DNA of 64,000 nucleotides from a virus. The translations under genes were made by a program, and so were the position numbers. This document shows positions 13,762 to 56,902 of the stretch, piece by piece (the first letter of the stretch is position 1; each line of letters begins with the position of its first letter). Below the pieces are notes generated by a model. That model ran no database searches. It was given only the letters and a program-made list of their open reading frames with translations, and was not told where the DNA came from. Location of the stretch: the IMG/VR virus record IMGVR_UViG_3300021406_000010, positions 32,001 through 96,000 of that record; one strand, 5' to 3'.

Positions 13762-14292
13762 CGGGGTGTCCCTCCGCTTTGGTCTCCTGACCCTTCTGCG
13801 GCCCGTGACGTCACGGGCAGGTAACGGTAACGCGGTGATAACGGCCACGACGAGCCGCAGGTCACGGTGCCGGACCGGCGGGAGCCGCCCGGCCTCCAGG
13901 AAGTCCGTCCACATGCCCGCCACCTCGTCCGCGTCCAGCCCGGCCGCCACCCGCGCCGCCGACCACCCGGCCAGCTTGCCGTGCCAGCGCTGCCTGGTGC
14001 CCTGGTCGGGCCTGCGGACCGGGACGAGGCCCCTCTGGACGGCCATGTCCACCAGGGCGCGGAGCTGGCTGCGGGTGAGGACCGCCCGGCCGCCGGCGCT
14101 GACGAGGCGGCAGGCCACCTCCAGGACGTCCTCCCCCTCCCCGGCGGCGACCCTGCGCGCTGCGGCGTCAGCGGCGGCGCAGGCGGGGTGGAGCTTGGCG
14201 CCGTGCCAGAACATGACGTCCTCGCCCAGCGTGAACTCGAGCTGGCACCCGCCGCAGGTGAGGCCAGCCTCCCAGGCCGTGATCGTGGACAA
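13762..14292 (-). CDS. Hypothetical protein or N-terminal extension, in frame with the downstream gene
   Basis: TTG 14292 after GGGAGGGAG RBS; CGGC...HPAC motif; no stop before ATG 13761. Confidence 0.45.
13801..13818. promoter_or_regulatory. Perfect 18-bp palindrome
   Basis: GCCCGTGAC|GTCACGGGC, 40 nt upstream of ATG 13761. Confidence 0.5.
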
Positions 14293-14751: not shown

Positions 14752-15378
14752 TCATCCCTCCAGGACCGAGCGGAACGCGGCCACCGTCGAGGCGCGCATC
14801 TGCGCCCGCGTGGCGCCGACGGCGTGCAGGATGGCGGACGGGTGGTAGACGGGCAGCAGCAGCCACGGCCCGGCGTCGTCCCGCAGGCGCCCGCGCCACT
14901 CGGGGAGGCTCCCGGGGTCGCCGGTGACGCAGTTCCAGGCGGGCGTCCCGCAGGTGATGACCACCTGCGGCCCGGTCAGGCCGATCTCGGCCAGCACCCG
15001 GCCGCGCGAGGCCTGCACCTGGAACGGGTAGGGGGTGCGGTTGCCGGGCGGGCGCCACGGCAGCACGTTGGTGACGTAGCACTCCCCCCACGGGATTCCC
15101 GCCTCGCCGAGCATCTTCTGCAGCAGCCGGCCGGCGGGTCCCACGAAGGGGGCGCCCGCTTCCTCTTCCTCCTTGCCCGGGGCCTCCCCGACGATGACGA
15201 CGGGGGCGTTCGGCGGCCCGCAGCCGCGCACCAGGCGCTTCCCGTCCGCTGCCTGCCGCAGGACCGGGATGGCCGCGTACCGCTCCCACAGGGCGTCCAT
15301 GGCCTCCTCGCGGGTGGTCACGCACTTCTCCAGGGCGTATTGCTCGTACGGCTCCACGAGCGACTCCCCGCCGTTCAC
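14752..15378 (-). CDS. Uracil-DNA glycosylase, family 4-like
   Basis: VGEAPG.EE...G.PFVGPAG.LL, YVTNV..WRPPGNRTP, YHPSAIL. Confidence 0.9.
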   Translation of the reverse strand: MNGGESLVEPYEQYALEKCVTTREEAMDALWERYAAIPVLRQAADGKRLVRGCGPPNAPVVIVGEAPGKEEEEAGAPFVGPAGRLLQKMLGEAGIPWGECYVTNVLPWRPPGNRTPYPFQVQASRGRVLAEIGLTGPQVVITCGTPAWNCVTGDPGSLPEWRGRLRDDAGPWLLLPVYHPSAILHAVGATRAQMRASTVAAFRSVLEG

Positions 15379-16532: not shown

Positions 16533-16813
16533 ATGCCCGTCACCACCAGGCGGAATGAGCGCTTCACCATCAGGCCGAGTATCTCGTCCAGCTGCCACCG
16601 GGTGGCGGCCGGGACGTCAAGCGCCAGCGGCGGGAGCGCCCCCGGCAGCGCGGACGCGGCCAGGACCACGCCGCTGAATCCCTCCAGGCAGGGAGTCTCC
16701 TCCACCCGCAGGAACTCCTCGCCCCGGTCGCGCAGGATGCGCTCCGCCTGCTCCCTGAGGCCGGGCGCGCAGAACGCCATCGGCGGCGGGACCGGGTCAT
16801 CGGGGCTGGTCAT
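16529..16813 (-). CDS. Hypothetical protein (94 aa)
   Basis: ATG 16813 in ATGA overlap with the stop of the giant ORF. Confidence 0.6.
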   Translation of the reverse strand: MTSPDDPVPPPMAFCAPGLREQAERILRDRGEEFLRVEETPCLEGFSGVVLAASALPGALPPLALDVPAATRWQLDEILGLMVKRSFRLVVTGI

Positions 16814-19800
16814 GGCAAGGATCCTCCTCCCAGCGGGAAGCCTACATCGTCCTTGCCACGGCGCACCCGCAGCTCGGCGAACCGCACCCCCACCGGAGGC
16901 CGGGCGGCCGACATGTCCTCGCCATCTTCCAGGAACCCGAGCGTCATGTGCGGCTTCCACTGCCGGTGCTCACTGGCCGACAGGTCTTCCAGGGCCTCCC
17001 GCAGCGCGGTGATGCCAGGCGCGTGCACGTGGGTGAACGCCGGGACCTTGCCGTCGTCGCCCGGCGGGAAGGACCCGACCCCCTGCAGCACCGCGTCCAT
17101 CGGGGGATGCGCGGCGGCGGCGGTCCTGGCCCGGTCGCAGGCGGCGGCGTACGCCTCGTCGCTGACGTCCGCCCCCAGGTAGACCAGGGTGACGTGCTGG
17201 TGGTCGACGGCGCCCGGCAGCGGCTCGACCAGGCCGCTGGGGACGGGCAGGTAGATCATCCCGGAGCGGGGCTTCAGGTCATAGCCGGAGGCGGCGGTGA
17301 CCGGCGGGAGCTGGTGGACGCGCCTGCGGTAGTTGCTGACCAGCGCCATGGCGTCGGCATGGTGGCGCAGGAAGTCGCCACCCGATCCCGGCTCGATCGC
17401 GTCGAGGGCGGTGGCGTAGTGCCGGGCGAACTCCGGGCCGTGCATTACCTCGTCGGGGAGCCTGGCCAGCGGGTCCAGCCCGGCATGGTGGATGTGCAGC
17501 AGGTGCCCCGCCTCGTGGGCGACGGTGCCCCGGCGCCAGTGCTCCGGGTACAGCAGCGCCACCCCGGGGTGCCCGTCGATGAGCGCCACGCTGGAGGCAC
17601 CGCGTCGCGGGTCCTGGTGGGCGATGACGGAAGCGCGGGCCGCCTTGGCCGCCGGGTAGCCGCCAGCCGCCAGGGCGTGGCGCAGGATGGCCGACCCTGC
17701 CTCGCTCGGCATGCCCAGCAAGCCGCTGAAGTCGTCGGGGTCTCGGTCGTCGAGCGGGGCGGCGAGGGCGGGATGGTCAGCGTAGGCGCGATCCTGGGCG
17801 ATGCGGATGACGGCCTTGTGCGGGCGGTCGGCCGCCCAGGCGCTCAGCGGGCTCCACGCTCCACCGCGCGCTGACTCCCGGCGGCGTGGCTCCAACGATG
17901 AGGCCGTCCTGCTTGGAGGCTCATGCGGAACCCTGCTCGCGATCTTGCCCTGGTTCAGGATGATGTGGCCGACGAAGTCCTTGGGCGGGTGGAACTCCAG
18001 CACGTCGGCGCCGGCGTCCCTGGCCTGCTGCACGCTGTCCACCATTGCCTTCAGGCTAGAAAGGCCAGCCTTCCGGACCACGGCGTCTGGCGCCATCTCG
18101 ATGCGGTCCACTTTCGGCCCGTAGAGCCTGGCGACCTCAGGATCGTGGGACACGAACAGCCCGGCGTTGTCCCAGGCGTCGATGCCCGTCAGGGCGCGCT
18201 CCTTGCGCCCGTAACCGTGGTAATAGACGCGAGGGCGGACTGGCTTCCGCGCTGCCCCTGACTTGCGCACCTTCTCCCACGACGCGGCGAATCCCGGGTG
18301 CAGCGGCAGTCCCTTCATCTCCCCTGGGGTGAACCACCCGTGGCCGGAAGACTCCCAGTCGGCGTCCGGGTCGCCGCCGCGCGGGGCGAACCGGGAGGGG
18401 GAGTCCATCACCACGGTCGAATAGGCCCATCCGCCATGATCGTCAGTGTGGGTCCGGACGTGCCGCAGGCCGCCCGGCAGCGGCCCCAGCTCCTCCTCGG
18501 CCTCCCGCCGCGCCCCTTCCTCGGGGGACTCGCCGCGTCGCAGCGCCCCGCCGGGCGTCGACCAGGTGCCCCCGTGCTGGACGTAAGGGGAGCGGTGCTG
18601 CAGGAGGTAGCGGTACTGGCCGTCATCGCCCCGGTGGCGGACGAGCAGCCCGGCCGCGCCCGCCGTGCCCCAGTGGGAATGGCCCTGGGCGCAGGTGGTG
18701 TAGTCTTCGGTGTCGCCCTCGTCGTCATCCTCGCCTGGCATCGAGGTGACTTCCATGCCGATCCGGCGGATGACCCGGACGGGGTGCTTGCTGGTGAAGG
18801 TGCTTGCGTTGAAGTCGTGACGGTAGGGACCGAGCGGCTCTACCTCGTAGACGTACGCCTGCTCTCCCGGTCGCCCGGGACGGCCGAAGGCGGGGATCGC
18901 CCCGGTAGCCAGCTCGGCGAATGTCCGGGCCGATGACTCACGATCGGTGAAGTACACGCTGCCTGGGTCACTCCCCTTCATCGTCCTCTCGTGAGACTGC
19001 GCGGGGTCCAGGACGTGGCCGGGATCATAGGGCTTGTTCGTGCCGTGGAAGAAGCGCTGTGGCTCCTCCTCCAGCGCCGACGTGACGTCCATGCCGTGGC
19101 TGAGGCGATGATGCGTCCAGGCGGGGTCATCCTTCAGGCGCGTCCTGGCCTGGTGATCCGGGGGCGCCCAGGAGATGCCCATCAGCCGGACGGGAGCGCC
19201 CTTGCGGATCGGCACCTCGGCGTGATCCTCGTGCCCCCTCTCGTCATAGCGGGTAGTGCCCAGCTCGTCGAGGACGCCAGGGTCTTCCTCGATGTGCTCG
19301 CGGGCAGGCGCCTGGGCGTGCAACATGACCGGAGTGGCCCCCGGCACGGGCCTGGTGATGAGGTTCCCCTCGGCATACCCCTTGGCCGTCTCCCGGTTCC
19401 CGGACCAGTTCACCCCCGTGCCCTGGCCGACGTGGCGCAGCAGCAGCCGCGCCCGCTGGCGCACCGGCAGGGACTCATCGTGCACCTGCTCATGGACGCC
19501 GGGCGGCAGCAGGACGCTCAGCCCCCGGTGCACCTGGGCTGGCAGCCTGACGTGCTCCCACTCGGTGATCGCCGGGTGCTCGTAGCGCCACATCCGGTGG
19601 TCGGCCTCGTGCCGCCCGCTGCCGCCGTCGTTACGGTCGCTTCCGCAGTAAGGGCACGGGTCCGGCTCGTCTTCGTCGCCTAGCGCTGCCTCGGCCTGCA
19701 GGCCGCCGCCGGTCATGTCGCGGGAGGCAGTGCGGCCTGGCAGGTTCCGCTGGTGGCTCTCCCAGTCGCCGTAGGCGCCCCCGAGGGTCTCGTCTTCGTC

Positions 19801-22713
19801 CCACAGGCGCCTCGGGATGGGCATCAGGTCAGGCTGGCGCCCTAGCGGCACCTCGCGCACGACGCGCAGCGGGTGGCGCGACATCCAGGAGTTCGGGGCC
19901 GGGCCGAACTCAGGGTCGTGCCCGCTGACCTCCTCCCTGTCAGGGAGCACGGGACCAGTCGGCTCGACCTCGAAGACGCGCCCCTGGTGGGGGGTCTTGG
20001 CCTGTGCGGCGAAGTCTGCCGCCTCGTCCCGGTCGTCGGTCGCGTAGACGTGCTCGCGCTTCCTGTCCCAGGTCCTGTCCGGGGAGTTGCTCGGGTGACC
20101 GGGGCTGATCAGGTCGCCTGGCCTGAAGGGGAAGCGGGCACCGTGGTAGATCGGCACGCTCTCGTCGCGGGCGGCCGTGTGCTGCCCGGCCGGCGGCCCG
20201 TCGCCGATCATGTCCCTGAACCGCTGGTGGTGGTAGGTGAAGTCGTCCCCGGCGTGCTTCGAGATCTTGTTGAGCACCGCCCCGTAGGCCCGCGCCCACT
20301 CCGGCCCGTGGGACTCCTCGTCCGGCGCGTGCTCGTTCGGCTTCCGGCCATGGGCGAGCAGGACGACGTGGTGGGCGCACTCGTGGGCGGCGGTGCCGTA
20401 GTCCCACATCTGCGGGTGCAGGGTGACGCCGGGATGGCCGTCCAGCCACGCGGGGTTGGACGTCTTCCGCTCCGGGTGCGGGTGCCGGGAGACGAACGAC
20501 CCTTCCGTCAGCTCGGCCGGGTACCCGGCGTGCCGCAGGAGGTGGCCCACCATCTCATCGCCCTCGTCGCCCGTGGGGAAGGGCATGCCCAGCCTCGGGT
20601 GCTGCCGGCGGACCTCCTGCTGGGCCAGGGCAGTAGCGGCGTGCCACGGCTCGTGCCCGCGCAGGCCCCACTCATCCATCTCCCGGTCCAGGTCGGCGGC
20701 GTCGCGGATAAGCGGCTCGTCCTCGGGGACGTGCGCGGCGGTCTTCCCGAACGGGTCGTCGGCCTCCCCGCGCCGCATGTAGGCGTCATACTCGGCCGGG
20801 ACGGCCTTCCGGTGCTCGCGCCAGTGCCGGTAGCTGGCGAGGTAGTCATCCCCCGGCTGGTAGTCGCCGTGCTCCTGGGTCCGGACGTACGGCACGGGAA
20901 CACCAAGCCGCCAGGCGACCGCCGCCCGGTGGTGGCCGCCTCCTACTTCCCAGGCGCCCTCGTCATGGTGGGCGACCTCAACCGGGTGCTCGAAGCCGTG
21001 CTCGCGGACGTGTGCCTCCAGGTCTGCCATGTAGCGCGGCTCGCGGCGCAGCAGGTCAGCAGTTACCCCGGCGATGTCATGGTGAGGGTAGTCCGTGAAG
21101 GTCAGCCGACTGAGGTCGCCAGGGTGCAGGACGCCAGACTCTGCCTCATCCTCGTCGTCTAGCGCGGCGGTCTTGGGCGCGTGGGCCAGCTCCCGGATGC
21201 GGTGCAGCACCCCGCCCGGAGCGTATGCGACGTACTTTTCTGTCACGTTTGAAACGTCGTCCCAGCCGGTGCCATCCGGCCCGAACGCCATGTCGCGGCC
21301 CGCGTGCAGCCGGTCCCACAGCGCCCTCGCCTCGCGGGTGCGCAGCGGCTCCTCCAGCCGCAGGATGGCCCGCGCCTCGGCCAGCACCGCGCGGGCCTGC
21401 GCCAGGACGGCCGGGGGAAAATCGGCGAGCGAGTGCTGCGGGAGGTGCGGCGGGGAAACGCTCCAGCGCATGGCGGTGACGTCGTAGGCGGCGTAGGGCC
21501 TGATGGCGGTGACGCCGTCCTCGCCGCCGCCGATCGCCTGGTTGCAGTAGGCGGTGAGCGACCAGGCACCCCCGAACGGCGGGTGCCAGTCCGGGTCGTT
21601 GAACCGGGCGCGGAGCACCGCGTTCAGGGACTGCGTGACCTGGTCATCGCTCATGGCCGACAGGGCGGGTGAATGGGACCGGGCGCAGTCATAGTCCGCG
21701 CCTATGAGCACGTCCAGGTCCTGCGCCTCGTCGTTGGGGCGGCTGCCCGCCCACTCCGACGCCGACCCCCCGGCTATGTAGACCCGCAGCCAGGACTGCC
21801 AGTCGCTGCTCGCGATGCCGGAGTCCGCCCGCAGTGCCTGGTCCAGGCGGGTCATGATGGCCTCGCGGACCTCCGGGCGAAGCTGGCGGTCCTCATCGAA
21901 CAGGCGGGGGTCAAGGCCGGTGGTCGCCGAGAAGATCCCGGAGGAGGGCGACCAGCGGGCTGCTGCCGTCCTGTGCCGGTGCAGCTCCGGCATCAGGCAA
22001 CCCCGCGCCCTGGTCACCCGGACCTCCTCCAGCCCGGCATCCCGTGCCGCCATGTAGCGGTGCTCGCCGTCTTCCAGGATGGTCCCGTGCGAGCAGGTTA
22101 CGAGGGAGCCGGGGACCGTGCCATGGTCCTCGGCGTAGCCGCGCAGGGCCGCCTGCTCCCGGGCAGCCCCTGCCGCTGCTTCGTCACCGTATCTCTTCTG
22201 CGGCTCGTCCTCGGGATGGCGGTACTCCCACACGTCGCCCAGGGTCATCCCCGGGTGGTTCATCGAGGCTACGCCGTGCAGGTCATCAAGCGGCACCATC
22301 GCGCCCCGGTCCTGCGGGCCGGGGCCTTCCGCCGCCCCGGTCACGCTTTTGGGCGGAACGTGCTCCCGCAGGACGCGCACGGGATGCCTGGAGCGGTACG
22401 CCTCTGGCTCGATGCCGCCTTCCTGCAGCTCCGGGTCGGGCTCCATCGGCCCGGTGGGCTGGACCACATACACGCGAGGGGTACTCCCGGGGTTCGCGCG
22501 CACCGCCTCGTCAGCGAAGAAGTCCGCCATCTCGTGCGTGGTGGAGGCGTAGACGTGCTCCCTGGCCCCGCCCTCGCCGATGGCCCCGAGGTCATCGTTC
22601 GCGGGAAATCCGGGAGCGACCAGGTCACCGCGCCTGAGCTTGCGGTGTGTGCCGTGATACCAGGGGCCGCCCGCGTCCGCCCCCCCGGTCACGCTTTTGG
22701 GCCAGGCTCCCAT
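16810..22713 (-). CDS. Giant polyvalent protein B (1967 aa): Arr-like ART, ParB-like, nucleotidyltransferase, ParB-like, zincin, Arr-like, ART-like, Arr-like, Nudix, ART-like, zincin, 2H phosphoesterase
   Basis: Motifs in order: WYHGT..VYVVQPTG; DGEHR; GGSAS..DLDV; GGHHR; HECAH..HGPEW; IYHGA..VFEVEPTG; VHRG..AEVP; FFHGT..VYEVEPLG; GGALRRGESPEEGARREAEEELG; YYHG..GLFVS; HEAGH..HGPEF; HVTL..HMTL. Confidence 0.88.
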   Translation of the reverse strand: MGAWPKSVTGGADAGGPWYHGTHRKLRRGDLVAPGFPANDDLGAIGEGGAREHVYASTTHEMADFFADEAVRANPGSTPRVYVVQPTGPMEPDPELQEGGIEPEAYRSRHPVRVLREHVPPKSVTGAAEGPGPQDRGAMVPLDDLHGVASMNHPGMTLGDVWEYRHPEDEPQKRYGDEAAAGAAREQAALRGYAEDHGTVPGSLVTCSHGTILEDGEHRYMAARDAGLEEVRVTRARGCLMPELHRHRTAAARWSPSSGIFSATTGLDPRLFDEDRQLRPEVREAIMTRLDQALRADSGIASSDWQSWLRVYIAGGSASEWAGSRPNDEAQDLDVLIGADYDCARSHSPALSAMSDDQVTQSLNAVLRARFNDPDWHPPFGGAWSLTAYCNQAIGGGEDGVTAIRPYAAYDVTAMRWSVSPPHLPQHSLADFPPAVLAQARAVLAEARAILRLEEPLRTREARALWDRLHAGRDMAFGPDGTGWDDVSNVTEKYVAYAPGGVLHRIRELAHAPKTAALDDEDEAESGVLHPGDLSRLTFTDYPHHDIAGVTADLLRREPRYMADLEAHVREHGFEHPVEVAHHDEGAWEVGGGHHRAAVAWRLGVPVPYVRTQEHGDYQPGDDYLASYRHWREHRKAVPAEYDAYMRRGEADDPFGKTAAHVPEDEPLIRDAADLDREMDEWGLRGHEPWHAATALAQQEVRRQHPRLGMPFPTGDEGDEMVGHLLRHAGYPAELTEGSFVSRHPHPERKTSNPAWLDGHPGVTLHPQMWDYGTAAHECAHHVVLLAHGRKPNEHAPDEESHGPEWARAYGAVLNKISKHAGDDFTYHHQRFRDMIGDGPPAGQHTAARDESVPIYHGARFPFRPGDLISPGHPSNSPDRTWDRKREHVYATDDRDEAADFAAQAKTPHQGRVFEVEPTGPVLPDREEVSGHDPEFGPAPNSWMSRHPLRVVREVPLGRQPDLMPIPRRLWDEDETLGGAYGDWESHQRNLPGRTASRDMTGGGLQAEAALGDEDEPDPCPYCGSDRNDGGSGRHEADHRMWRYEHPAITEWEHVRLPAQVHRGLSVLLPPGVHEQVHDESLPVRQRARLLLRHVGQGTGVNWSGNRETAKGYAEGNLITRPVPGATPVMLHAQAPAREHIEEDPGVLDELGTTRYDERGHEDHAEVPIRKGAPVRLMGISWAPPDHQARTRLKDDPAWTHHRLSHGMDVTSALEEEPQRFFHGTNKPYDPGHVLDPAQSHERTMKGSDPGSVYFTDRESSARTFAELATGAIPAFGRPGRPGEQAYVYEVEPLGPYRHDFNASTFTSKHPVRVIRRIGMEVTSMPGEDDDEGDTEDYTTCAQGHSHWGTAGAAGLLVRHRGDDGQYRYLLQHRSPYVQHGGTWSTPGGALRRGESPEEGARREAEEELGPLPGGLRHVRTHTDDHGGWAYSTVVMDSPSRFAPRGGDPDADWESSGHGWFTPGEMKGLPLHPGFAASWEKVRKSGAARKPVRPRVYYHGYGRKERALTGIDAWDNAGLFVSHDPEVARLYGPKVDRIEMAPDAVVRKAGLSSLKAMVDSVQQARDAGADVLEFHPPKDFVGHIILNQGKIASRVPHEPPSRTASSLEPRRRESARGGAWSPLSAWAADRPHKAVIRIAQDRAYADHPALAAPLDDRDPDDFSGLLGMPSEAGSAILRHALAAGGYPAAKAARASVIAHQDPRRGASSVALIDGHPGVALLYPEHWRRGTVAHEAGHLLHIHHAGLDPLARLPDEVMHGPEFARHYATALDAIEPGSGGDFLRHHADAMALVSNYRRRVHQLPPVTAASGYDLKPRSGMIYLPVPSGLVEPLPGAVDHQHVTLVYLGADVSDEAYAAACDRARTAAAAHPPMDAVLQGVGSFPPGDDGKVPAFTHVHAPGITALREALEDLSASEHRQWKPHMTLGFLEDGEDMSAARPPVGVRFAELRVRRGKDDVGFPLGGGSLP

Positions 22714-25700
22714 GACCCTTCCGGGCCGTCGCCCGCCGCCGCGATCACCCGCAGCGCCAGGTCATGCACCGCCTCGGCGACCTCCCGGGCGACCGGGGCG
22801 TCCTCCAGCCTGACGGCCACCGCCAGCAGCCGCTCCCCGGTGAACCGCAGGAACCCCGGGATGGCGGCGAGCAGCTCCCGTGCCTCGTCCGCAGCAGTGC
22901 CGGCGGTGATGGCGGCCGGGACCACGTCGGCGACGGGGGAGATGACCATGCCCTGCGAGGCGGACTCCTCGTTGTCGCCGACCCGGCGGATGACGCGCAG
23001 CGGATGCGCGGACTTCCACTCATCGCCGTTGTAGCCGCCCTTCACCTCGCCGGTCGGCGCCACCTCGTAGACGTGGCCGCCAGCGTCCCGGGCGTAGTCC
23101 CGCGCCCCGGTCAGGTCGGTGGTGAAGTGGTTGAACTGCGAGCGCGGTCCCTCGTCGCCCCACGCGTTGGTCGGATGGCCGACAGTGACCTGGCTGCCCT
23201 CGCGCAGCCGCTTCGACCGGCTGCCATGGTAGAAGGGGCCGGTGACCTGCTGCTCCTTGCTGACGTAACCGCCCTCCGGGCCGTGCGTCTGGTACCGCCA
23301 GGTGAACGACGGGGGACCAGGTGGCTCCAGGGCGGCCTCGTGCCGGGAACCGCCGTCGTCCTCGTCCGGCTCGTGCAGGTGCCGGTACTCCTCCGGGACC
23401 GGCATCTCCCGCTTGACGTCGAACCCGGCGCGGCTGCGCACGTCATCGTCGTTGTTGCCGCGCGGCCACCCGTCCTTCAGGTAGAACGGGTCCTTCTCCA
23501 GGTCATCGGCCTTCGGCGTCACCTGGTAGACGCGCGGCGGACGGCCGAGCGTCAGGCTGGCCTTCTCCGCGTAGCCCCAGGCGTGCGCCAGGCCCGCCGT
23601 GGCGTACCCGTGCGTGCCCTCGTGGTCCATCCCGAAAGCGCGGCCACGGCCGGGAGTGACCTCCTGCAGGCCCTCCTCGGTGGTGCCATGGTAGTAGGGG
23701 CCCCTCGCGGGCAGCCCCTGCCGGTGGCGCTCGACGTTCTCGTCCAGGCGCGCCTGCCTGCCTGCAGCCGCCTCCGGGCTGACGTCGAAGGCGTGCGAGC
23801 AGTTAGCGCAGGTGGCCGTGCTCCCGCGACTGCCCGGCTGCCGCTCGCGGCTCCCGCACTGAGGGCACCTCTCCTGCGTCATCAGGGCCAGCTCGCGCTC
23901 GAACTCCGGGGATCGCCTGACCGGCTGGTGCCCCTCCCCGGGGAAGTGATGGACGGGGGCCTTGTGGCTGTCTGAGCAGTTCACGCAGAAGGGGGCCTCA
24001 CCGGGAACGCGCTCCTCGGCCCCGGACGCCTCATCGCGGTGGCGCGCCCACAGGAACCCGTCCAGGTCGCGCTCTGGCGCGATCCTGGTGTGCGGGCCGC
24101 CTTTGGTGGCGGCCGTCACCTCATGCCCCTCCCCGAAGTGCGCCTCCAGCTCCCGGGCCGCCGTGTGCTGCCGTGGCTCGTCCGCGTCAGCGGCATGCGG
24201 GAACCCCGGGTAGGAGGTCCGCTTCCGCTCGCCGCTCGGGTAGTTCAGCGGGGCGGGCCGGTCCTGCGCCTCCGCGCCGTGGAACGGCCCCCTGCGCCCG
24301 TCGGCGAACGGCTCGTCCTCGTGCGGGGAGTAGGCGACGTAGGCGCGGATGCTGGGCCAGTGAGCCGCGTTGGCGCCGTTCGCCCGGTGGTGCCCGTCGG
24401 CCACCTGGAACACGCCGTGGCGGTGCACCAGGACCACCGGGGGAACCTTGTCGCGCTGCCGGTGGTCCCTGAACCCGTCGGCGGCGCGCTTCACGCGGGG
24501 GTCCCACGGCTCGGCCTTCATGTAGTCGATGCGGCTGGTGTCCACCGTGCGCGGGCGGAACCGGATCTCTGACCCCGGGTAGCCGGTGAGCGGGTGCAGT
24601 TCACCGGTGGACTCGGCATAGGGATGTCCTGGCCGGTCGTGGTACAGCTCGGCAGCAGCATCGCCGATGTCCCAGCCGTATCCGTTGCCCGTGTCCGGCC
24701 CGAATCCCTCAGGCGCCCCGTGGACTTCAGGGTCCCCGTACAGGTGCGGGTGCCGCCTCCCGATCTCCTCCCAGGTGAGACCGTCATCGTCTCGGCCAGC
24801 CTCCAGGACGGCCTGGCGGTGCTGCGGGGTGCCCCCCAGCTCGGTCAGCGGCCTGCGGCAGTAGTGGCAGCGCAGCTCCGCCGACGGGTCGCGGACCTCG
24901 TACCGGCCCGAAGACCGGCCAGCAGGCTCCCCGAAGGGGCCGTTCAGCTGGGGCATGTCCCCGCCGGGGAAGATGCCGTGCTCGTCGTGCTCCGGCTCGC
25001 CCTCGGCGAACGTGTGGTGCACCCCGATGCCATGGGCGCGGTCCTCAGCGTGCGACTGCTCGCAGGTGAGGTTGCAGTACCTTCCCTGGTCGTACTCGCC
25101 CCGGTCCCAGCGCTCGTCCCGGGCGCGGTCCCGGGCCAGGGCCGCCTCCACCTCCGGGGAGTGGCCGTCCTCCGGCCAGTGACGCACCTCGGCGCCCTCG
25201 CGGCGGGAGCAGTGCAGGCACTGCGGCACCTCATCTGGGTCGCGCTCGGTGATACCGTCGTCCTCACCCCTGCGCATGGCCCAGGCGAAGCCATGCTCAT
25301 CCTGCTCAGGCGGCATCCGCCGGTAGGACTGATGGTCCTCGTCATCCATGTCGTCCCAGGGCTCGCCATCGTCGTCCTCGCCGCTCGCGGCAGCCTCCAG
25401 GGCGGCAGTGCGCCCGTCGTCATTGCCCTCCAGGTAGCGCATGGCCTCGTCGTGCCCCGGCCCGGCGAACATCCGGTCGATATCGCGGCCGGCATCCCGC
25501 CCGGCCCTCTCGCGGCCCGCCAGCTCGTGGTGCTCGGCCAGCGCCGCGTGCCAGTCGTCGGAAGTGCCCCAGCGGTAGTGGTGCCGGGTGCTATCCGGCG
25601 TGAACGGCTGGTCGCCCTCCACGTGCGGCGGCGTTCCCGGGTCGAGTTCCTTGTGCCGCCAGGCGTCCTCGGTGACCTCCGTCGGGCCGGAGCGCGAGGT

Positions 25701-26460
25701 GACCTTCCCGTGCAGGATGTCCGCCATCGATGACGGGCACTCGGCGCTGTCCGTGCACTCCGCCTGGGTGTGGGGACGCGGCCAGGTCAGCCGGTCGTTG
25801 CAGTACTGGCACTCCTCGCCCCGCACCGGGTCGCCGTACCGGCGCATCCGGCCCCAGGAGGCCCCCTCCATGTCGGAGACGTCCTCCCGGGCCTCGTGCT
25901 CCCACCAGTTCTTGCACGACGGGCACGAGTAGCCTCCCTCGCCCGACCAGGCGTAGCGCGCGTCGTCCGGGCCGCTGACCGCCTCCATCCGGGCGACGGC
26001 CCGCTCGTGCTCGCCGGTGCGGGCGTGCTCCGCCTCGATCCTCGGCCGCAGGTCATCCCAGTACGTCTTGCCCTCGCCGCCAGCGGCCTCGTCATTTGCG
26101 GCAGCAGCTTCCAGGGCGGCCGTGTGCCCGCGCAGGTCGGGAACCTCGCGGATCACCTCGGCAGGATCCTGGGTCGCCCAGTCATGCCCTTGCGCGTCGC
26201 TGCGGTGGCCGATCCAGCCGACCGGCCGTACCTCGTAGACGTGGCGCCCGTACCCCCTTGCCCCCTTGCCGTGCCCGCCGGGCCCCCAGTCGTCCTCGGG
26301 GTGCTCCGTCATGTAGACGTGCTCCAGCGGCTCGTCGGTGAAGTTGCCGGGGTGCCCTGGCTCGACGTGGCCGCCGGGCGCGATCTCGTGCCTGGTCCCG
26401 TGGTAGAGCGGTCGCGGGGCGTCCAGCGGGTGCCGGTGGTCCTCCAGGCCAGAGTCGCTG
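22689..26460 (-). CDS. Giant polyvalent protein A, C-terminal part: Arr-like, Zn-binding modules, ParB-like, Arr-like x2, TraA-like tail (probably continuous with the upstream ORF via a frameshift)
   Basis: LYHGT..VYEVRP; multiple CxxC; VADGHHR; YYHGT..VYQVTP; FYHGS..VYEVAPTG..HPLRVIR; no credible start of its own. Confidence 0.8.
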
Positions 26461-29400
26461 GGTAGTAGCGGTCCTGCGCGCCTTCCGGCCCCCGGGCGTG
26501 GATGACGCCGTAGGTGCCGTGGTTGTAGCTCCACCCGGCCGGGGACGGGGGCGTCCATTCCGGTTCGCCGTTCTCCTCAAAGTGGGCGACCACCGGCGGG
26601 AGGTGCAGGCTGCTCTCGCTCGGCGTCAGCGGCCGGAACGGCCTGCTGGCCTCCGGGTCGTGCAGCACGCGCTCGAACTCCCCGTTCCTCCTGGGAGTGC
26701 CGCCGAAGAAGTCGGTGTGCTCCGAGAGCTGGAAGACGTCCGGCCACTGCCGCTCGCCGGGGAGGCCGCGCTGGGTTTCGTGCTGGTGCGTCGAGTTGGT
26801 GCGCTGGTGCTCACCGGCGTGCCACCGCTCCTGGTTCTTCGGGGACATGTGCAGGTCGGAGGTGCGGGAGTCCATCCCGTGCATGTGGTGCATGTGGTCG
26901 CGCAGCTCGCCCTCCCTGGGCGGCTCCACGTAGGGCAGCGCCGCGCGCCTGGCGGCCTCCGCCGCCGCCTGGCTCCTCTCGTACGCGTCGTCCTCATCCT
27001 CGGTGTCGCGGCCTTCATCATCGTCATCCTCGTGGCCACCCTGGATGTCGTCGTCCCAATCGTCCTCGTCCATGGCAGTGGCTTCCAGGACAGCCTCGTG
27101 GTGGCGGCCCTCCTCGTCGAACAACGGGTCCATGTGCCGCTGGCCGCCGGGCCACTGGCGCTGCGCCTCGTCCTCGGGCAGGCACTCGGCGCCGGTGTGC
27201 CGCTGGGTGACGTCCACCTGGTCCTCACCGAAGGCGATGGCACACCGGTTGGCATCCTTCTCCGAGCTGAGGCCATCACACGGCGACTTCTCGAAGGCGT
27301 TCCCGTACACGATCCCGTCATGGCCCTGAGACCGCAGGTGGGCGATATGCCGCTGGGCTATCTCGTACTTCTCCGGGTGGGCGTTCAGCCAGCCGGTCGC
27401 GTACGGATGCACCTGCCGGTGCTGGCGCATGTAGTGCTCGCTCGGCTCGTCCTGGCGGCGCATCCGCTCGCCGTCGTCGGCGTAGTCGTAGGCCACCCCG
27501 ACGTCAGACCCTTCGTCGTGGTACTCCTTCAGCTCCGGGTCCAGGTGCCGCTCGATGTGGTTGCCGGCCTTCCACTCCCGCTCGTATGCCTCCTGGTCCA
27601 TGTCGTGCTCGGAGGCGTAATGCTTCGGGCTCCTCATGAGGAGCCGGGCGTGGATGACGTTCTCCTGCGGGCCGCCCTGCGGGAAGCCGCCGGATGGGTG
27701 GTCGCCGTGGGCGAACTGCTCGGCCACCTTGTGGCAGGCGGTGAAGTGGTGGCCCAGCAGCGTGTTCCAGTGCGACGTGTCGTCGGGGTCGTCCTCGTAC
27801 TCCAGGTCGCTGTACGGCCGGTCGCCGCCGAAGTCCCCGAACCGGTGCGGGGAGCCGTGGAACCACTCCAGTCCCCGGGTGTGCGGGTTCGGGTACGGGG
27901 CGCGGCCCGGTGCGGGATCATGGAGATCATGGCGCTCGCCCTCCGAGGCGAGCGAGGATCGCAACGGGTACGCGGCTGCCGCTGCGGTCACCGGCCTTGT
28001 CCTTCCCGTGCTGGGGCGCGCCGCGACGGCCTCGCGCCGGGCGGGGGCCGAGGGAGGCCCCTCCGGCGGGTCGCGGCGCTCGCGCCCCTTCAGCCCGCGC
28101 GCCCACTTCTTGCCCTGTTCCGTCTGGTCCTTCGAGTGCCTCGCCTTCGGGGACATCTCCTGCGACCAATCCCACATCGCGGTGGCCAGGCCCCGGGCCT
28201 GGTGGTCGCGCCCGTCGCCGAGCAGGGACCCCCTGGCGGTGTCGTCCTCGTCGCCGGCCACGTCCATGTGGTGGACCCAGCCGGTGGCGCCGAACCAGTT
28301 CAGGCGGCCGACGACACGGCCCTCGGGGGTGTGCGCCTCGATGAAGTGGCGGGGCTTACGCTCCCCCATGTCCTCCGTGCGGTAGCGCAGCGTGTAGTAC
28401 CCGAAGGGCCGCTCATCGCCGTCCCGCTGGCGCGAGGCGCGCTTAGGCGACAGGGGCGGCTCCTCGTGCGGTGCCACGATCGCGGGCGGCTCGTCGCGGG
28501 CCGCCTCCCTCGGCGGGACGCGCATCTTGTGGCTGCAGTACTCGTGCATGTGCAGGGCCTCGCGCGGCTCGCCCCAGTAGCCCCACTCCTGCAGGTCGTC
28601 GCCGTTCCCGTTGCGGACGTCCTGCGCCCGGACGGTGGTGCCCCAGATGTGGTACCTGCCAGGGTGGTCAGCGGGCAGGCTGCCCGACGGCGGGTCGTTC
28701 ACCTCGGCGGCAGTCTGCTCGGCGTACTTCCGGTTCAGGGCCACCCAGTCGCCTGGGTTGAACTGGCCCCGCTTGGCGTTGCGGGACTCCGGGTTGAGCG
28801 CCGGGGCGGCCCGCCAGATGCGGACCTTCGCGCCGGGCTTGCCGCGCGCCCTGCGGATCATGCGCAGGTGGTCATGGCCGAACTGGCCCTCGCCGAAGTC
28901 ATACCACTCAGGGTGGTCGTAGACGTCGGCGGGGAAAGTGTCGCCCTGCGTCAGGTCGTGCAGCGGCGCAGCCTCGTCGTTCGGGCGGTGGCTGACGCCG
29001 TAGTCCTCCGGGGTGGCCGCCGCCTCGAAGTGGGCCACCACCTCCGCCACCGGGGCGGCGGGCGGCTCGGCCGCCGCCTGGTGCCGCTGCTTCCACCGCC
29101 GGATGCGCGGGTCCTCCTGCTCCAGGTGCTCGCGCGTGCCGCCCGCCTCGCCATGCCAGGCGTTCAGGGCCTCCTCCACGTGCCGGGGACCGACGTGGGC
29201 GGCCAGCTCCCCGGTCTTGGGGTCGGTGTCCAGCCCGGTGACGTCGTGGGCGTACTCCCCGGTGGCCTGGTGGTGCAGCTGCAGGTACATGCCGCCGAAG
29301 CTGCGGCCCGTCCAGCCGGACGGCCTCCCAGACGGAAGGCGGTGCTCCAGTTCGTAGTACGGCTCGCCGTCGTCCCTGAACCTGATCTTGCCGCGCCCGC

Positions 29401-30820
29401 CCTCGTAGCGGGTCATCAGCTCCTGGCCGTTGCGCAGCGCCCGGTCGGACTGGCGGGACTCCTCGGTGCCGCCGGGGTCCTCGATGTCCTGGACCTTCCT
29501 GAACAGAGCATCACCGAACGCCTTCCCCGCCTCCTGGGACTGGCGCTTGTGGTCGATGTAGTCCCGGCTGGCCTCGGCCTGGTGCTGGGTCTCGAAGCCC
29601 CGGGCGTTGCCGGTCATCGCGTGGCGGCCCGCGTTGTCGACGACGTGGAAGCGATTGGTCTGCGGGTGGCGGACCACCTCGTACGGGCCGTGCCACTCCT
29701 CGCTAGGGCTGTAGCCCTGCGGCTCGTGCACGCGCGGCTCCGGCCGGGCGGCCAGCTCCAGGTCATAAGCGCTGACCCGGGAGTGCGGGAACTGCGGCGG
29801 GTTGCGGCGCAGGTGCTCCCGGTAGGCCTCGTGCAGCCCGACGGCGTCGACCTCTCCGGGATGCGTGCGGCGGACCTCGTCCGGCTCGCGACGGGTGGTC
29901 AGCCGGTACCAGTCCTGCATGGCGCTGCTGTTGCCGGAGAACATGCCACGGCTGCCGTCGTAGGCGCCCTCGTTCGGGTGGGTGGACCTGCCCTCGCGGT
30001 CCACGACGTGGTAGGTGGCGTTGCGCTCCCGCTCGCTGTAGTCGCGGCCCTTCTCGCGCTCCGGGTCCCGGGTCACGTAGTAGGGGCCGTGGTCGGGGGC
30101 GGTCAGGTGCGGGTGCTCCTCCAGCCTGCGGTTACCCGGGTCGCGCTGGCCATCGCGCATCCGGGCCAGGAAGTGCCCCGCCACCGGGGACTCGCCCGTG
30201 GGGGTGGCGAACACGTCCTCGCTCTCGGGAACATCGGCGGCTGCCTCGAAGTGGCCGAGCAGGTCATCGCCCGCGCTGGCCTTGCGGAGTTGCCGCTGAT
30301 GCGCTTCCATGCGCTCATAGTCCTCACGCGTGAAGTCCCAGTCCGGCCCCCATCCGTGCGGGCTGCCCAGGTAATGCCTGCCCTCCTGGTAATCCCCATG
30401 GTCGCCGCTCCACTCCTCGTGCAGCCTGACGACGCGCAACGGATGATCAGTAATCCGCGATCCACCGTGTCGCAGCTGGCCCCGCCTGGTGCCCCCAAGG
30501 TTCTCCGGGTCATGCATGTGCGGGCCTGTCGGCTCTACCTCATAGACTCGCGCTCGCCCGGACTCCCCGTACCGGTCAGCTCCTGGCGGCTCGTGGGCAC
30601 CGTCAGCGAACCAGCGAGCCTGGCCGGGGTTGACCGACATGTAGAGGGGCTTGCCTGTCACTGACTGCCACTTCGGCAGCCTGCCCACGTGCTCGTAGTT
30701 CCGGTGCGCGGCGGCTTCCTCGCCAGTCAGCAGGTCCCCGGGATGCAGTTCGTACCGCGTGCCGTGAAAGAAGGGGCCGCGCTCCTCGTCGAGGAAGCCT
30801 GCCCGCCGCTCATCGCCCAT
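26309..30820 (-). CDS. Giant polyvalent protein A, N-terminal part: Arr-like ART, unknown repeat domain, ART-like, GNAT, PolyVal-type ART, His-rich module
   Basis: FFHGT..VYEVEPTG..HPLRVVR; IWRA..GDWV..YA..EWGY; HQARGLATAMWD..HS..QT..G..WA; WFHGS..GHHFT..GHDGIVY.N..E; ATG 30820 lies 7 nt after a -10 box. Confidence 0.85.
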   Translation of the reverse strand: MGDERRAGFLDEERGPFFHGTRYELHPGDLLTGEEAAAHRNYEHVGRLPKWQSVTGKPLYMSVNPGQARWFADGAHEPPGADRYGESGRARVYEVEPTGPHMHDPENLGGTRRGQLRHGGSRITDHPLRVVRLHEEWSGDHGDYQEGRHYLGSPHGWGPDWDFTREDYERMEAHQRQLRKASAGDDLLGHFEAAADVPESEDVFATPTGESPVAGHFLARMRDGQRDPGNRRLEEHPHLTAPDHGPYYVTRDPEREKGRDYSERERNATYHVVDREGRSTHPNEGAYDGSRGMFSGNSSAMQDWYRLTTRREPDEVRRTHPGEVDAVGLHEAYREHLRRNPPQFPHSRVSAYDLELAARPEPRVHEPQGYSPSEEWHGPYEVVRHPQTNRFHVVDNAGRHAMTGNARGFETQHQAEASRDYIDHKRQSQEAGKAFGDALFRKVQDIEDPGGTEESRQSDRALRNGQELMTRYEGGRGKIRFRDDGEPYYELEHRLPSGRPSGWTGRSFGGMYLQLHHQATGEYAHDVTGLDTDPKTGELAAHVGPRHVEEALNAWHGEAGGTREHLEQEDPRIRRWKQRHQAAAEPPAAPVAEVVAHFEAAATPEDYGVSHRPNDEAAPLHDLTQGDTFPADVYDHPEWYDFGEGQFGHDHLRMIRRARGKPGAKVRIWRAAPALNPESRNAKRGQFNPGDWVALNRKYAEQTAAEVNDPPSGSLPADHPGRYHIWGTTVRAQDVRNGNGDDLQEWGYWGEPREALHMHEYCSHKMRVPPREAARDEPPAIVAPHEEPPLSPKRASRQRDGDERPFGYYTLRYRTEDMGERKPRHFIEAHTPEGRVVGRLNWFGATGWVHHMDVAGDEDDTARGSLLGDGRDHQARGLATAMWDWSQEMSPKARHSKDQTEQGKKWARGLKGRERRDPPEGPPSAPARREAVAARPSTGRTRPVTAAAAAYPLRSSLASEGERHDLHDPAPGRAPYPNPHTRGLEWFHGSPHRFGDFGGDRPYSDLEYEDDPDDTSHWNTLLGHHFTACHKVAEQFAHGDHPSGGFPQGGPQENVIHARLLMRSPKHYASEHDMDQEAYEREWKAGNHIERHLDPELKEYHDEGSDVGVAYDYADDGERMRRQDEPSEHYMRQHRQVHPYATGWLNAHPEKYEIAQRHIAHLRSQGHDGIVYGNAFEKSPCDGLSSEKDANRCAIAFGEDQVDVTQRHTGAECLPEDEAQRQWPGGQRHMDPLFDEEGRHHEAVLEATAMDEDDWDDDIQGGHEDDDDEGRDTEDEDDAYERSQAAAEAARRAALPYVEPPREGELRDHMHHMHGMDSRTSDLHMSPKNQERWHAGEHQRTNSTHQHETQRGLPGERQWPDVFQLSEHTDFFGGTPRRNGEFERVLHDPEASRPFRPLTPSESSLHLPPVVAHFEENGEPEWTPPSPAGWSYNHGTYGVIHARGPEGAQDRYYPATLAWRTTGTRWTPRDRSTTGPGTRSRPAATSSQGTPATSPTSRWSTST

Positions 30821-30827
30821 GCCCTCA

Positions 30828-30850
30828 ACGATAGCAAGAAAACCTGCATT
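30828..30850 (-). promoter_or_regulatory. Conserved promoter/operator motif copy (leaderless, upstream of polyvalent gene A)
   Basis: AATGCAGGTTTTCTTGCTATCGT on the - strand. Confidence 0.7.
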
Positions 30851-30904
30851 AGTCATAGCCGCCTCCCGCAACTTCCGGGCGGGAAGAATAGCGGGAGGCG
30901 GGGC

Positions 30905-31189: not shown

Positions 31190-33310
31190 TCAGGACCGGT
31201 GCCGCCGCATGGCGGCCGGGGAGCGGCCGAGGCCCGGCGGCATCCGGGACCCGGGGACGGGGCGGGTGCCACGGGACAGGCCGCCCCGGCCGGTCATCCC
31301 GCCGAGGGACGTGGCGTAGGGGTTCTGCGCCTCCGGGTTGAACCGCTGCAGCGCGTCGTAGTCGCCCATCGCCGCGTGCGGGCGCAGGGACCGCAAGTCA
31401 GAGCTGATGTAGGCCTTCATCTGCTCGCCCAGCAGCCGGGCCACGGTAATCGAGCAGGCGTCGGCGATGTCCTTGGTCCGCACCGGGCCGGAGTCCGCGC
31501 ACACCACCTTCGCCTGGCCCTCCGGCTTCTGCACGAACCGGAGCTCGTCCCGCAGCTCCCCGTGCGGGGGGCAGTGCGCCAGGCCCATGTTGAGGCACGC
31601 CTTGAACGTCTCCCAGGTCGCCCAGTTCAGGGCGGCGGTCGCGGTCCGCTCCCACACCATCACGTTCTTCTGGAGATGGGCGCGGCGGACCATCTTCTGC
31701 AGCGCCTGGACCGACGCGGCGGCGTTCCACTGGTCGAAGGACAGCTGGCCCGGCTGGAACGGCAGGACGACGTTGGCCATGATCCAGTCGCGGACCTCGT
31801 CGTAGTCGATCGTGTGGCCCTCGAAGTCGGCCGGGTCCCAGAAGTGCACCAGGTCGATGACCGCGTGGGCCAGCTGCGGCTCGCCCGGCACGGGGAGGCC
31901 CGGCTCGGCGTGCGCCACCACCAGGCCGAACCGGCAGTTCACCGACGACGGGTCACCGTGCGCGGTGTAGGAGACGGACAAGGGGCCGCGCGCCTGCATG
32001 ACCAGCTCGGGCCGTCCCCAGGCGGGGTCGCGGCCCTGCCACGGGGCGAACATGTCGTCGATCCGGGCGGCGTTCAGGTAGGCGTCGAGGGCAGTCTGCC
32101 AATCCGATCGCCTCTCGACGGCGAACGCGTCAGGGTTGGCCTTCTCCTCCCGCGCCATCTCCTCGTCATAGGCCTGGATGGCACCCCGCAGGGACTGCAG
32201 CACCGGCAGGCGCTCCGGGTCATGCTCACCGAGGTCGCCAGTGAAGCCCTCCGGGAACAGCGGCAGCAGGTGCGCCCGCTCCCAGTCCTCGTAGATCGCC
32301 CAGGACTCCAGCTGGACCATCAGCTTGGTCGGGTAGGCGGGCATCACCTCGCCCGGCTCGGGGGCGGGCTCGGACTGCAGGGAAAGGTTCCACAGCTCGT
32401 AGAAGCCGCCGGTCATCTCCCAGGTGGACGAGGGCAGCACGATGAACCCGTCGGTGCCGAACTGGTCGAGCGACGGCCGGGCGGCCTGGTAGATGACCTT
32501 GAACTCCCGCGTCACTCCCGCGTTCTTGACGTGGGCCGCCTCATCAAAGCCGAGGATGCAGCCGGCCGGGCCACGGGGGGCCAGCGGGGTCGACTCGCGG
32601 GGCACGATCCGGAAGGTGGCCGCGTCGCGGGACGAGTCGATGCCTCGCCGGGCCAGCTCGTGCATCCGGACGAAGTCGTACGGGGCGTAGACGGTCAGCG
32701 ACTCGGCCTGCGCCTCGGAGATGTAGGGGGTGAAGCACGGCGCGGTGGTGATCACCGAGTACAGGTCGCCCCACAGGTTCTCCTTCGCCTGCTCGCGCTT
32801 CCCGGCGAAGCAGGCGACGGCCAGCGCCTTCTCCTGGGAGATGCCGTAATGGGCCTGGGGGTTGCCGAGGGACAGGTAGTTCCACAGCACGTACGACATG
32901 CACAGGGCCGAGAAGTACCCCTTGGAGCCGCGCCGGCCGAACGCCAGGATCAGCTCGGGGAACCACCGGTAGCCGCGCTTCTTCAGGTAGGCGATCCGCT
33001 CGTAGAGGTCAGGCTGGATGCCCTTGGTGCGGGCGGAGAACTTCCCGTCGGCGGCGTCCGGGTTGGTGTCGCGGAACCGCTGCTGCCACTCCGCGATCAC
33101 CCGCCGGTCGTAGTCGGTGAACAGGTCATCGCGCAGGAACGCGATCTTGAGGAGGGTCGACTGACGGGGGTACAGGCCCGGCTTGGCCAGCCACTCCTCC
33201 CCCGTCACGAACGTGACCGGGTCCGGCACCGGCGGCCCGTCGTACCACCCCAGCATGTCCAGCGGGCCGACGGCGGTGGTGTCAGGCGCCTGCCAGCGGC
33301 TGATCGCCAC
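31190..33310 (-). CDS. terL: Terminase large subunit
   Basis: LYPRQ adenine motif, GRRGSKG Walker A, ILGFDEAAH Walker B, nuclease acidic motifs HGDPS / FDQWN / KDIADA. Confidence 0.85.
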   Translation of the reverse strand: MAISRWQAPDTTAVGPLDMLGWYDGPPVPDPVTFVTGEEWLAKPGLYPRQSTLLKIAFLRDDLFTDYDRRVIAEWQQRFRDTNPDAADGKFSARTKGIQPDLYERIAYLKKRGYRWFPELILAFGRRGSKGYFSALCMSYVLWNYLSLGNPQAHYGISQEKALAVACFAGKREQAKENLWGDLYSVITTAPCFTPYISEAQAESLTVYAPYDFVRMHELARRGIDSSRDAATFRIVPRESTPLAPRGPAGCILGFDEAAHVKNAGVTREFKVIYQAARPSLDQFGTDGFIVLPSSTWEMTGGFYELWNLSLQSEPAPEPGEVMPAYPTKLMVQLESWAIYEDWERAHLLPLFPEGFTGDLGEHDPERLPVLQSLRGAIQAYDEEMAREEKANPDAFAVERRSDWQTALDAYLNAARIDDMFAPWQGRDPAWGRPELVMQARGPLSVSYTAHGDPSSVNCRFGLVVAHAEPGLPVPGEPQLAHAVIDLVHFWDPADFEGHTIDYDEVRDWIMANVVLPFQPGQLSFDQWNAAASVQALQKMVRRAHLQKNVMVWERTATAALNWATWETFKACLNMGLAHCPPHGELRDELRFVQKPEGQAKVVCADSGPVRTKDIADACSITVARLLGEQMKAYISSDLRSLRPHAAMGDYDALQRFNPEAQNPYATSLGGMTGRGGLSRGTRPVPGSRMPPGLGRSPAAMRRHRS

Positions 33311-53888: not shown

Positions 53889-54248
53889 CTAGTCGTCCCC
53901 GCCGGGGTCGACGTTCCAGGCCGGCTCGTTGCGACGGGGCTCCTCGTGCCGCCTGATGTCGTCCTCGTGGGAGGCGTAGAACTTGTCGGCCACCTCCTGC
54001 GCCACGGCGGACAGCCCGCCGATGGTGGCCGCGAACTCCTTCAGCTCCTCCGCCGGCGGATCGTTGACGGGTGCCTCCTCGACACGGGCCACGATGCCCG
54101 TGAAGTCCTCCGCGAGCCCCTCGAACAGGGCCGGGAGGCCGGCGAAGAATCCCATGATCGACGCGGCGTTGTCGAACTGGATCCCGCTGAGGACCTCGGA
54201 GACGTGGTCCTTCAGCTCCGTGAGCGCCGGTGATGGTGATGGTGCCAT
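53889..54248 (-). CDS. TraA-like plasmid transfer accessory protein (119 aa)
   Basis: AGGAG RBS before ATG 54248; LPALF...PV...HEDDIRRHEEPR.NE..WNV resembles actinomycete plasmid transfer proteins; in frame with the upstream ORF. Confidence 0.5.
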   Translation of the reverse strand: MAPSPSPALTELKDHVSEVLSGIQFDNAASIMGFFAGLPALFEGLAEDFTGIVARVEEAPVNDPPAEELKEFAATIGGLSAVAQEVADKFYASHEDDIRRHEEPRRNEPAWNVDPGGDD

Positions 54249-56769: not shown

Positions 56770-56803
56770 GGGGAGCCTCCTCGGGGGAGCGGTAAGTTGC
56801 CCT

Positions 56804-56826
56804 ACAATACCAAGAAAGCCTGTATT
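56804..56826 (-). promoter_or_regulatory. Conserved promoter/operator motif copy
   Basis: AATACAGGCTTTCTTGGTATTGT upstream of the spd-like gene. Confidence 0.7.
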
Positions 56827-56902
56827 CGGTACACTGGCCCTGGGGGGCCGTGGGTGACGGCAGGGTCACACGTCACACTTTTCGCCCCCTGGCCTGCGGA
56901 AA

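Follow-up and report, generated by a model that had tools for sequence, protein, structure and literature searches.

Polyvalent proteins of phages combine unrelated enzyme domains in one chain, drawing on a repertoire that includes ADP-ribosyltransferases (ARTs, among them the ART-PolyVal family), GNAT, Pol-beta nucleotidyltransferase, ParB-like, zincin and 2H domains (Iyer et al., 2017; PMC5512222). They occur in terminase-portal phages and in the context of head genes, have been described with 2–15 modules, and may carry repeated ART copies, a 12-copy case being on record. A locus of this polyvalent type, sharing the repertoire, the context and the ART repetition, lies in a window of 64,000 nt, the whole stretch of DNA that was analysed, which corresponds to bases 32001–96000 of a 166,488-bp viral contig of approximately 71% GC (IMG/VR record IMGVR_UViG_3300021406_000010). 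It consists of three giant minus-strand open reading frames (ORFs) directly behind the terminase gene, A (26309–30871), B (22689–26558) and C (16810–22713), which together code for approximately 25 modules of roughly 100–400 aa each. Seven of these resemble the rifamycin ADP-ribosyltransferase Arr. Our reading, based on sequence and given a probability of about 0.68, is that the locus encodes a head-packaged multi-effector polyprotein, whose Arr-like modules would not be rifamycin-resistance enzymes.

T4 Alt is a single ART of the R-S-E type, proteases of the T4 type cut after Glu, and herpes assemblin cuts at Ala/Ser sites; the basic-x-Ala-[Ala/Ser] motif found between the modules here is closer to the assemblin sites than to after-Glu cleavage. 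Lactobacillus phage A2 uses CCCAAAA as a slippery sequence. Together with A2, phages T3/T7 and Listeria A118 have −1 frameshifted virion proteins in which, as is proposed here, the slip precedes the stop codon and adds a C-terminal extension (PMC5009743); the known extensions are single Ig-like domains, whereas the present one would comprise approximately 1,960 aa with a dozen enzyme modules, and as many as 2,880 aa in relatives. T4 Alt and internal proteins and the ejection proteins of SPN3US and phiKZ, which include an ART, are packaged in the head, processed by protease and injected (PMC9503650, PMC10052503); the present cargo is known from sequence, and its processing, unlike theirs, would split one chain into many enzymes. 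A phage-borne Arr fold has also been reported in Microbacterium and Gordonia phages and in Sinorhizobium phage PBC5 (PMC9503650), where these solo Arr-family ARTs are single small genes rather than seven modules of one cargo protein. Polyvalent proteins, solo phage Arr-family ARTs, protease-processed head cargo and frameshift-extended virion proteins are already known singly, and limited literature searches found no paper that combines these four features. The repeated ART of this locus belongs to the Arr clade, and the strings "rifamp" and "frameshift" are absent from PMC5512222. Unlike the polyvalent proteins described, the polyprotein shares a linker with head proteins and has a conserved −1 slippery site; the failed Arr membership, the resolution of A and B into one gene, the conserved −1 site and the test of the linker motif on other polyproteins and cultured phages are new here.

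The seven Arr-like stretches are present where the original prediction had placed them, all on the minus strand: A1 (30420–30780), B1 (26130–26410), B2 (23400–23700), B3 (22975–23240), C1 (22360–22665), C2 (19850–20155) and C3 (18760–19060), the first aromatic codons of their [FWYL][FY]HG motifs lying at 30772, 26408, 23696, 23234, 22662, 20151 and 19053, respectively. Pfam Arr-ms (PF12120) matches one, three and three of them in ORFs A, B and C, respectively, each whole protein scoring above the cut-off of 25 bits, and NCBIfam rifampin_ARR matches all seven (E 7e-14 to 9e-4). A word-index homologue search with one Arr-like domain gave no match, whereas the profile search gave matches. The Arr-type ART fold that had been predicted was recovered in an AlphaFold model of C1, the one domain of the seven for which a structure was modelled (pLDDT, predicted local distance difference test, 86.5). 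This model matches the Arr structures 2hw2, 9iaf and 9iba with E 1.6e-8 to 3.2e-7 and template modelling (TM) scores of 0.76–0.79 (2hw2: E 1.6e-8, TM 0.79), and only Arr structures were significant; such agreement is far beyond chance. The catalytic residues of Arr-ms are H19, Y49 and D84 (PMC8120803, PMC13246000). Among the seven domains the His is kept in all, the Tyr in six and the Asp in five, so that A1, B2, C1, C2 and C3 have the complete H-Y-D triad. B1 keeps His and Tyr and has neither an aligned Asp84 nor the A..[FY]A helix pattern; in B3 the His is kept, another His replaces the catalytic Tyr and the Asp84 equivalent is absent. The claimed signature pattern does recur at seven sites but is incomplete in these two. 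Because B3 lacks both Tyr and Asp although its subfamily is the most conserved one among the phages, it may use a different chemistry or only bind.

Resemblance to Arr (Arr-ms, Arr-2/3, Arr-X; PF12120, NF033144) ends with the fold and, in five of seven domains, the triad. For comparison, 76 bacterial Arr sequences and 18 phage domains were aligned, with positions conserved in at least 90% of bacterial Arr taken as the signature. None of the 18 phage domains retains the conserved cleft motifs W-G-A-E-L and D-D-P-N-x-T-x-K-x-F-P-G-N-x-T or the W-x-G-H of the bacterial C-terminus, and T95, K97, T104 and H125 are absent from every one of them. The phage domains retain 14–27 of the 47 invariant positions, compared with 42 in a bacterial control; PBC5 orf74 (18 of 47) also lacks the Arr signatures. 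In Arr a C-terminal helix caps the rifampin site (PMC8120803), and the phage domains stop before it. With NCBIfam rifampin_ARR they score 19–52 bits, against an equivalog cut-off of 130 bits and 222 bits for an Arr-3 control. In a quick unrooted tree of 145 domains and 111 columns, a short alignment that leaves many open forks, bacterial Arr forms one branch (SH-aLRT support 97) that contains none of the seven. Judged by these comparisons, the seven Arr-like domains are not rifamycin Arr, and the Arr family membership assigned by the original prediction fails; rifamycin as their likely substrate is unsupported, since all seven lie far below the equivalog cut-off and have lost the conserved signatures, and we consider it highly improbable. 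Host proteins or nucleic acids, also named there as targets, are plausible candidates.

The prediction of seven divergent paralogues was correct as to divergence, but the seven are internal modules of giant ORFs and not separate genes. It overlooked that they form part of one linker-punctuated polyprotein next to the terminase, and this alters what they signify. Diversification is evident: they are only 32–45% identical to the first, and several group with subfamilies of other phages and not with each other. B1, B3 and C3 each fall in a strongly supported group (99–100) with domains from other phages, so that these appear to be old subfamilies brought together in a single chain rather than products of a recent expansion. 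A profile search with the Arr-like domains gave 2,545 protein hits with E no higher than 0.001; among the best 150 are 66 proteins of at least 800 aa (maximum 3,995 aa, at most eight matches) and also dozens of stand-alone proteins of approximately 100–140 aa. None of the cultured phages in the collection searched has an Arr polyprotein of this kind.

ORFs A and B are a single gene of 2,725 aa (22689–30856, minus strand). A database protein of this length (P0005) spans both ORFs, with 99.8% identity for A and 100% for B, and its gene is intact in one JGI contig (L102) and one ENA contig. The JGI contig and the window share 99.9% identity over 12 kb. Apart from two substitutions and an in-frame indel of 9 nt, the JGI contig has a single additional base near 26461; relative to it, a one-base deletion at 26459–26463 separates A from B in the window. 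The break is an assembly error or a strain variant. A programmed frameshift at this point was considered and rejected, as there is no slippery run or TTA and the ORF is intact in the two other assemblies.

The junction of B and C is of another kind. ORF C (1,967 aa) is in the −1 frame relative to B, whose end reads GGC CCA AAA GCG TGA. A −1 slip on the heptamer C CCA AAA (22695–22701, minus strand), one codon before the B stop, enters frame C as P-K-S-V-T, and this frame remains open for 1,963 codons. The form C CCA AA(A/T) has the same phase and the same distance of one codon from the stop at eight of the nine junctions examined as DNA, and its codons are rare in the genome (CCA 4.6%, AAA 3.6%, AAT 6.6%). 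The heptamer occurs only four times in the 166-kb genome, twice at the polyprotein locus, and a scan of viral contigs with a 14-nt DNA pattern gave more than 100 matches. Among database polyproteins ending in the same helical module as B, 11 of 15 terminate in PKA or PNR. In another eight database proteins PKSV, PKSL or PKSI comes a few residues after the N-terminus, and in two polyproteins the helical module is internal and the chain continues beyond it in frame, as a natural fusion. A hairpin is predicted 5–7 nt downstream of the heptamer (22660–22689 here) and is significant in two relatives, G001 and G005 (z −4.0 and −4.5), and in an internal copy (z range over all three −2.9 to −4.5). This copy, an in-frame heptamer with hairpin at 22316–22354 on the minus strand, lies 348 nt further on, has a stronger hairpin than the junction and forms with it a 39-nt direct repeat of 85% identity. 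Since the two copies bracket C1, they suggest that C1 was inserted with target duplication. B and C are probably joined by −1 frameshifting, and the fused A+B+C product would be approximately 4,700 aa.

Most module boundaries bear a basic-x-Ala-[Ala/Ser] or V-T-[AS]-[AS] word. Such linkers, [KRH]-T/E/Q-A-[AS] and V-T-[AS]-[AS], are spread within 16810–30856 on the minus strand, with first bases, for example, at 29083, 28510, 27991, 26126, 25412, 24167, 24119 and 23342, and further on at 21972, 21174, 20745, 20181, 19734, 19086, 17910 and 17301. In the polyproteins [KRH]TA[AS] occurs 10 times, against 0.57 in shuffled sequence (17-fold), and in the portal, protease, capsid and three neighbouring proteins seven times, against 0.63 (11-fold). 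Elsewhere in the proteome (40,233 aa) it is at chance level (6 versus 6.25). RT, KT and HT are the dipeptides most enriched before A[AS] in 63 other polyproteins, where 168 of 170 linker motifs lie outside annotated module cores and 57 would be expected inside; acidic ([DEG]TA[AS]) or reversed control motifs show no such depletion. Head-module proteins of the cultured phages Gordonia RedWattleHog and Rhodococcus E3 contain [KRH]TA[ASG] 13 times versus 0.59 and five times versus 0.57, respectively, and E3 gp70, annotated as structural, has both linkers and a GNAT-like module in common with the polyproteins. In all three phages the domain of the head maturation protease has a His and a Ser that are conserved and is immediately followed by a linker; no sequence match to this domain was found in PDB. 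A second word, [LIVM]-x-x-H-F-[AEG], lies within the first 45 residues in 15 of these 63 polyproteins, and three small genes close to that of the portal begin with it. By analogy with the capsid-targeting sequence of T4, it could act as a signal for loading. Leader-like [LV]-x-x-H-F-[EG] words in the window have their His at 30253, 29032, 26584 and 24140 (minus strand).

Starting from the domain identities, gene continuity, conserved heptamer and motif statistics observed, we infer a course of slippage, packaging, cleavage and targeting. A and B are one gene with C next in the −1 frame. At C CCA AAA some ribosomes would, quite likely, slip by −1 and produce the chain of approximately 4,700 aa and 25 modules, and others would stop after the helical end-module, which would set the ratio of short to long product. 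Both forms would be made late, with the packaging genes, and the polyprotein would likely be loaded into the prohead. On balance, the head-maturation protease would then be the enzyme that cuts the basic-x-Ala-[Ala/Ser] linkers, releasing domains of approximately 100–400 aa that would be ejected together with the DNA. Once in the host, the Arr-fold domains would rather likely use nicotinamide adenine dinucleotide (NAD+) to modify various macromolecules, or consume it, and so disarm early defence, in partnership with the other ARTs and the GNAT, nucleotidyltransferase, NUDIX and 2H modules. Host defence or expression would be the target of the ARTs, and NUDIX and 2H would destroy nucleotide signals.

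Several observations weigh against parts of this scheme. Pfam and PHROGs scans detected no MuF or other structural or head-targeting domain in the locus, MuF being common but not obligatory in polyvalent proteins. The linker motif had been picked from this genome ahead of the tests, and the related polyproteins, sharing ancestry, do not count as independent samples; approximately one third of their sequence is annotated as module core, so that "outside" includes unannotated modules, and the strict motif is found 0 times in the 3,502 aa of RedWattleHog terminase, portal and capsid. Two of the seven Arr-like domains lack the full triad. The hairpin is not significant at the junction itself (z −0.5) or in the relative G003 (z −0.3). 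Translation of ORF C from its own overlapping start, with CCCAAA merely encoding an N-terminal P-K-S, would accommodate the ATG at 22713 and the Shine-Dalgarno-like GGAAGG just upstream of it, the start that gene callers set a few codons before PKS in relatives, and the relative G002, which has separate overlapping ORFs and no heptamer. A start of this kind leaves unaccounted for that the Lys codon is invariably AAA when AAG makes up 96% of usage, that the following Ser codon alternates between AGC and TCG from junction to junction while CCCAAA stays, that the upstream stop is always one codon past the heptamer, and that in-frame natural fusions exist. We regard it as doubtful in place of frameshifting, and the two routes may both operate.

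Doubtful to a similar degree is the view that the polyprotein is packaged or active uncut, its Ala-rich motif being a flexible linker or a joint for module-swapping recombination. The direct repeat around C1 indicates that linker DNA can serve as an insertion joint, relatives have their modules in shuffled order, and N4 virion RNA polymerase is packaged unprocessed (PMC5512222). The motif, however, is sequence-specific with a basic first residue, [DEG]TA[AS] controls show no positional bias, and the protease-scaffold and neighbouring head proteins of three distant phages have it in common. Cutting of the chain by its own zincins and not by the head protease is favoured by the two HExxH modules of ORF C and by a general proposal for polyvalent proteins (PMC5512222); yet 51 of the 63 polyproteins have no detectable zincin, linker density is similar with and without one (1.7 and 1.4 per 1000 aa), and HExxH is absent from the linker proteins of RedWattleHog and E3. 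Zincins could act in trans, but this explanation is quite improbable. Improbable, too, is that some domains ADP-ribosylate rifamycins or other phage-blocking actinomycete small molecules. That idea, raised earlier for solo phage Arr-family ARTs (PMC9503650), agrees with Arr being the closest solved structures, with an actinomycete host, and with the variable cleft of active Arr-X enzymes (PMC13246000); it has against it the 18 of 18 phage domains without the invariant signatures and the capping helix (PMC8120803), scores below half of the equivalog cut-off, and the presumably small number of packaged copies, which would fit macromolecular targets better.

If the head-packaged effector reading holds, phage "Arr" hits would be read as probable anti-host effectors instead of antibiotic resistance, which matters for resistance-gene annotation. 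It opens many small, divergent, putative NAD+-using domains to testing and may bear on what Arr did before rifamycin. For polyvalent-protein processing it predicts a specific cleavage site and enzyme, with the motif also in the cultured RedWattleHog and E3, and the frameshift, if true, would be an unusually large recoding extension. A wider proposal is tentative and somewhat unlikely: that a widespread large-actinophage clade makes, by programmed −1 frameshifting, an enzyme polyprotein of 4,000–6,000 aa, head-loaded and cut by the prohead protease at basic-Thr-Ala-[Ala/Ser] into approximately 25 effectors, the Arr fold being chiefly a diversified phage effector family of several undescribed target specificities and rifamycin-inactivating Arr one specialised branch.

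The other modules are all on the minus strand. NUDIX (18274–18696; Pfam, E 7e-13) and 2H phosphoesterase (16828–17286; significant in Pfam) stand together with Arr-ms above Pfam cut-offs in one ORF; the only PADLOC match, a weak one, is in the NUDIX region. An ART-PolyVal-family module at 27167–27874 is supported by 13 of 24 family members that match PF18760 (best E 2.2e-7), and the window's own copy gives no PF18760 match. Three more modules are ART-like: a probable one at 28547–29008 (R...WV...EWGY), conserved and assigned to ART by inspection; a probable R-S-E-type module at 19099–19566 (HRG...HWS...EVP), with unconfirmed atlas leads to DUF4765 and DraT; and a short YYHG module at 17920–18240, seen by inspection. 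As profile-profile comparisons among the ART-like families were not significant, these three assignments remain leads. Weak matches point to a GNAT-like module at 28067–28408, related to that in E3 gp70, and to ParB/Srx-like modules at 24174–24785 (with GHHR), 21988–22311 and 20749–21156. A Pol-beta-like nucleotidyltransferase module (21178–21960) was assigned by inspection from its GS and DxD motif and has solo homologues in Streptomyces BRock-like phages. Profiles of the R-S-E-like, PolyVal, ParB-like and nucleotidyltransferase modules found nothing significant in PDB. Two zincin (HExxH) modules, at 20188–20730 and 17314–17841, are SprT-like below the cut-off. The conserved helical C-terminal module of the upstream polyprotein (22689–22946) belongs to no known family; it has no match in cultured phages, the atlas or BFVD, and prohead anchoring as its role is unsupported. 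Several further Cys- or His-rich modules have no family assignment. C3 is flanked by the similar peptides G-M-D-V-T-S and G-M-E-V-T-S (18742–19096), suggesting a second insertion with linker duplication.

The terminase large subunit gene (31190–33310, minus strand) is directly upstream of the polyprotein locus, and its product shares approximately 30% identity with the terminases of Bxz1-like mycobacteriophages, Rhodococcus E3 and Gordonia RedWattleHog. Portal, capsid and head maturation protease (phrog_18299, E 1.2e-20) are encoded elsewhere on the contig, the major capsid protein having 54–58% identity with capsids of RedWattleHog and Bxz1-like phages. By these relationships the source would be an uncultured Bxz1/E3-related myovirus of actinomycetes, and its host is an actinomycete. 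In five near-complete relatives, too, this locus follows the terminase, but with its modules shuffled and with approximately one to five Arr-like domains. Three downstream proteins (642, 586 and 326 aa; 9630–14292, minus strand) have the same linkers as the polyprotein. Between them and the polyprotein lies a uracil-DNA glycosylase family gene (14752–15357), as in relatives. The protease-scaffold protein (1,331 aa; G000:C1:158775-162770) has inserted modules between linkers, including a phrog_3842 match. E3 gp70 (L101:29160-32319), annotated both as a structural protein and as a two-piece pseudogene, has its last 217 codons in another frame; this may represent another programmed frameshift, in that case affecting a linker-rich head protein from a cultured phage.

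Elsewhere in the window, an FtsK/TraB-like gene (53889–59086) has its best matches mainly in plasmids of Streptomyces and other actinomycetes, and ARAGORN reported a tRNA-Arg(GCG) at 54745–54833, with an unusual anticodon and in a very GC-rich stretch, which may be spurious. In G002 a lower-GC endonuclease-like ORF overlaps the polyprotein region (L004:18026-18643), and in G004 the nucleotidyltransferase module is split by approximately 500 nt (L010:16339-16843); these interruptions are possible introns or mobile endonucleases. Stand-alone Arr-like genes are in tandem on a short contig (L225:193-881), and many such proteins of 100–130 aa start with a leader of the form M-[ST]-A-x-D-[NH]-L-[SN]-x-x-Q-F, which may serve packaging in another group of phages. 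Next to the portal gene (G000:C1:12450-17007) are approximately nine small tandem paralogues (85–167 aa) with the core (L/M)-x-[ST]-G-H-[HNKY], a family of candidate internal head proteins; three of them start with D/N-L-I-R-H-F-A, the leader-like word of the polyproteins.

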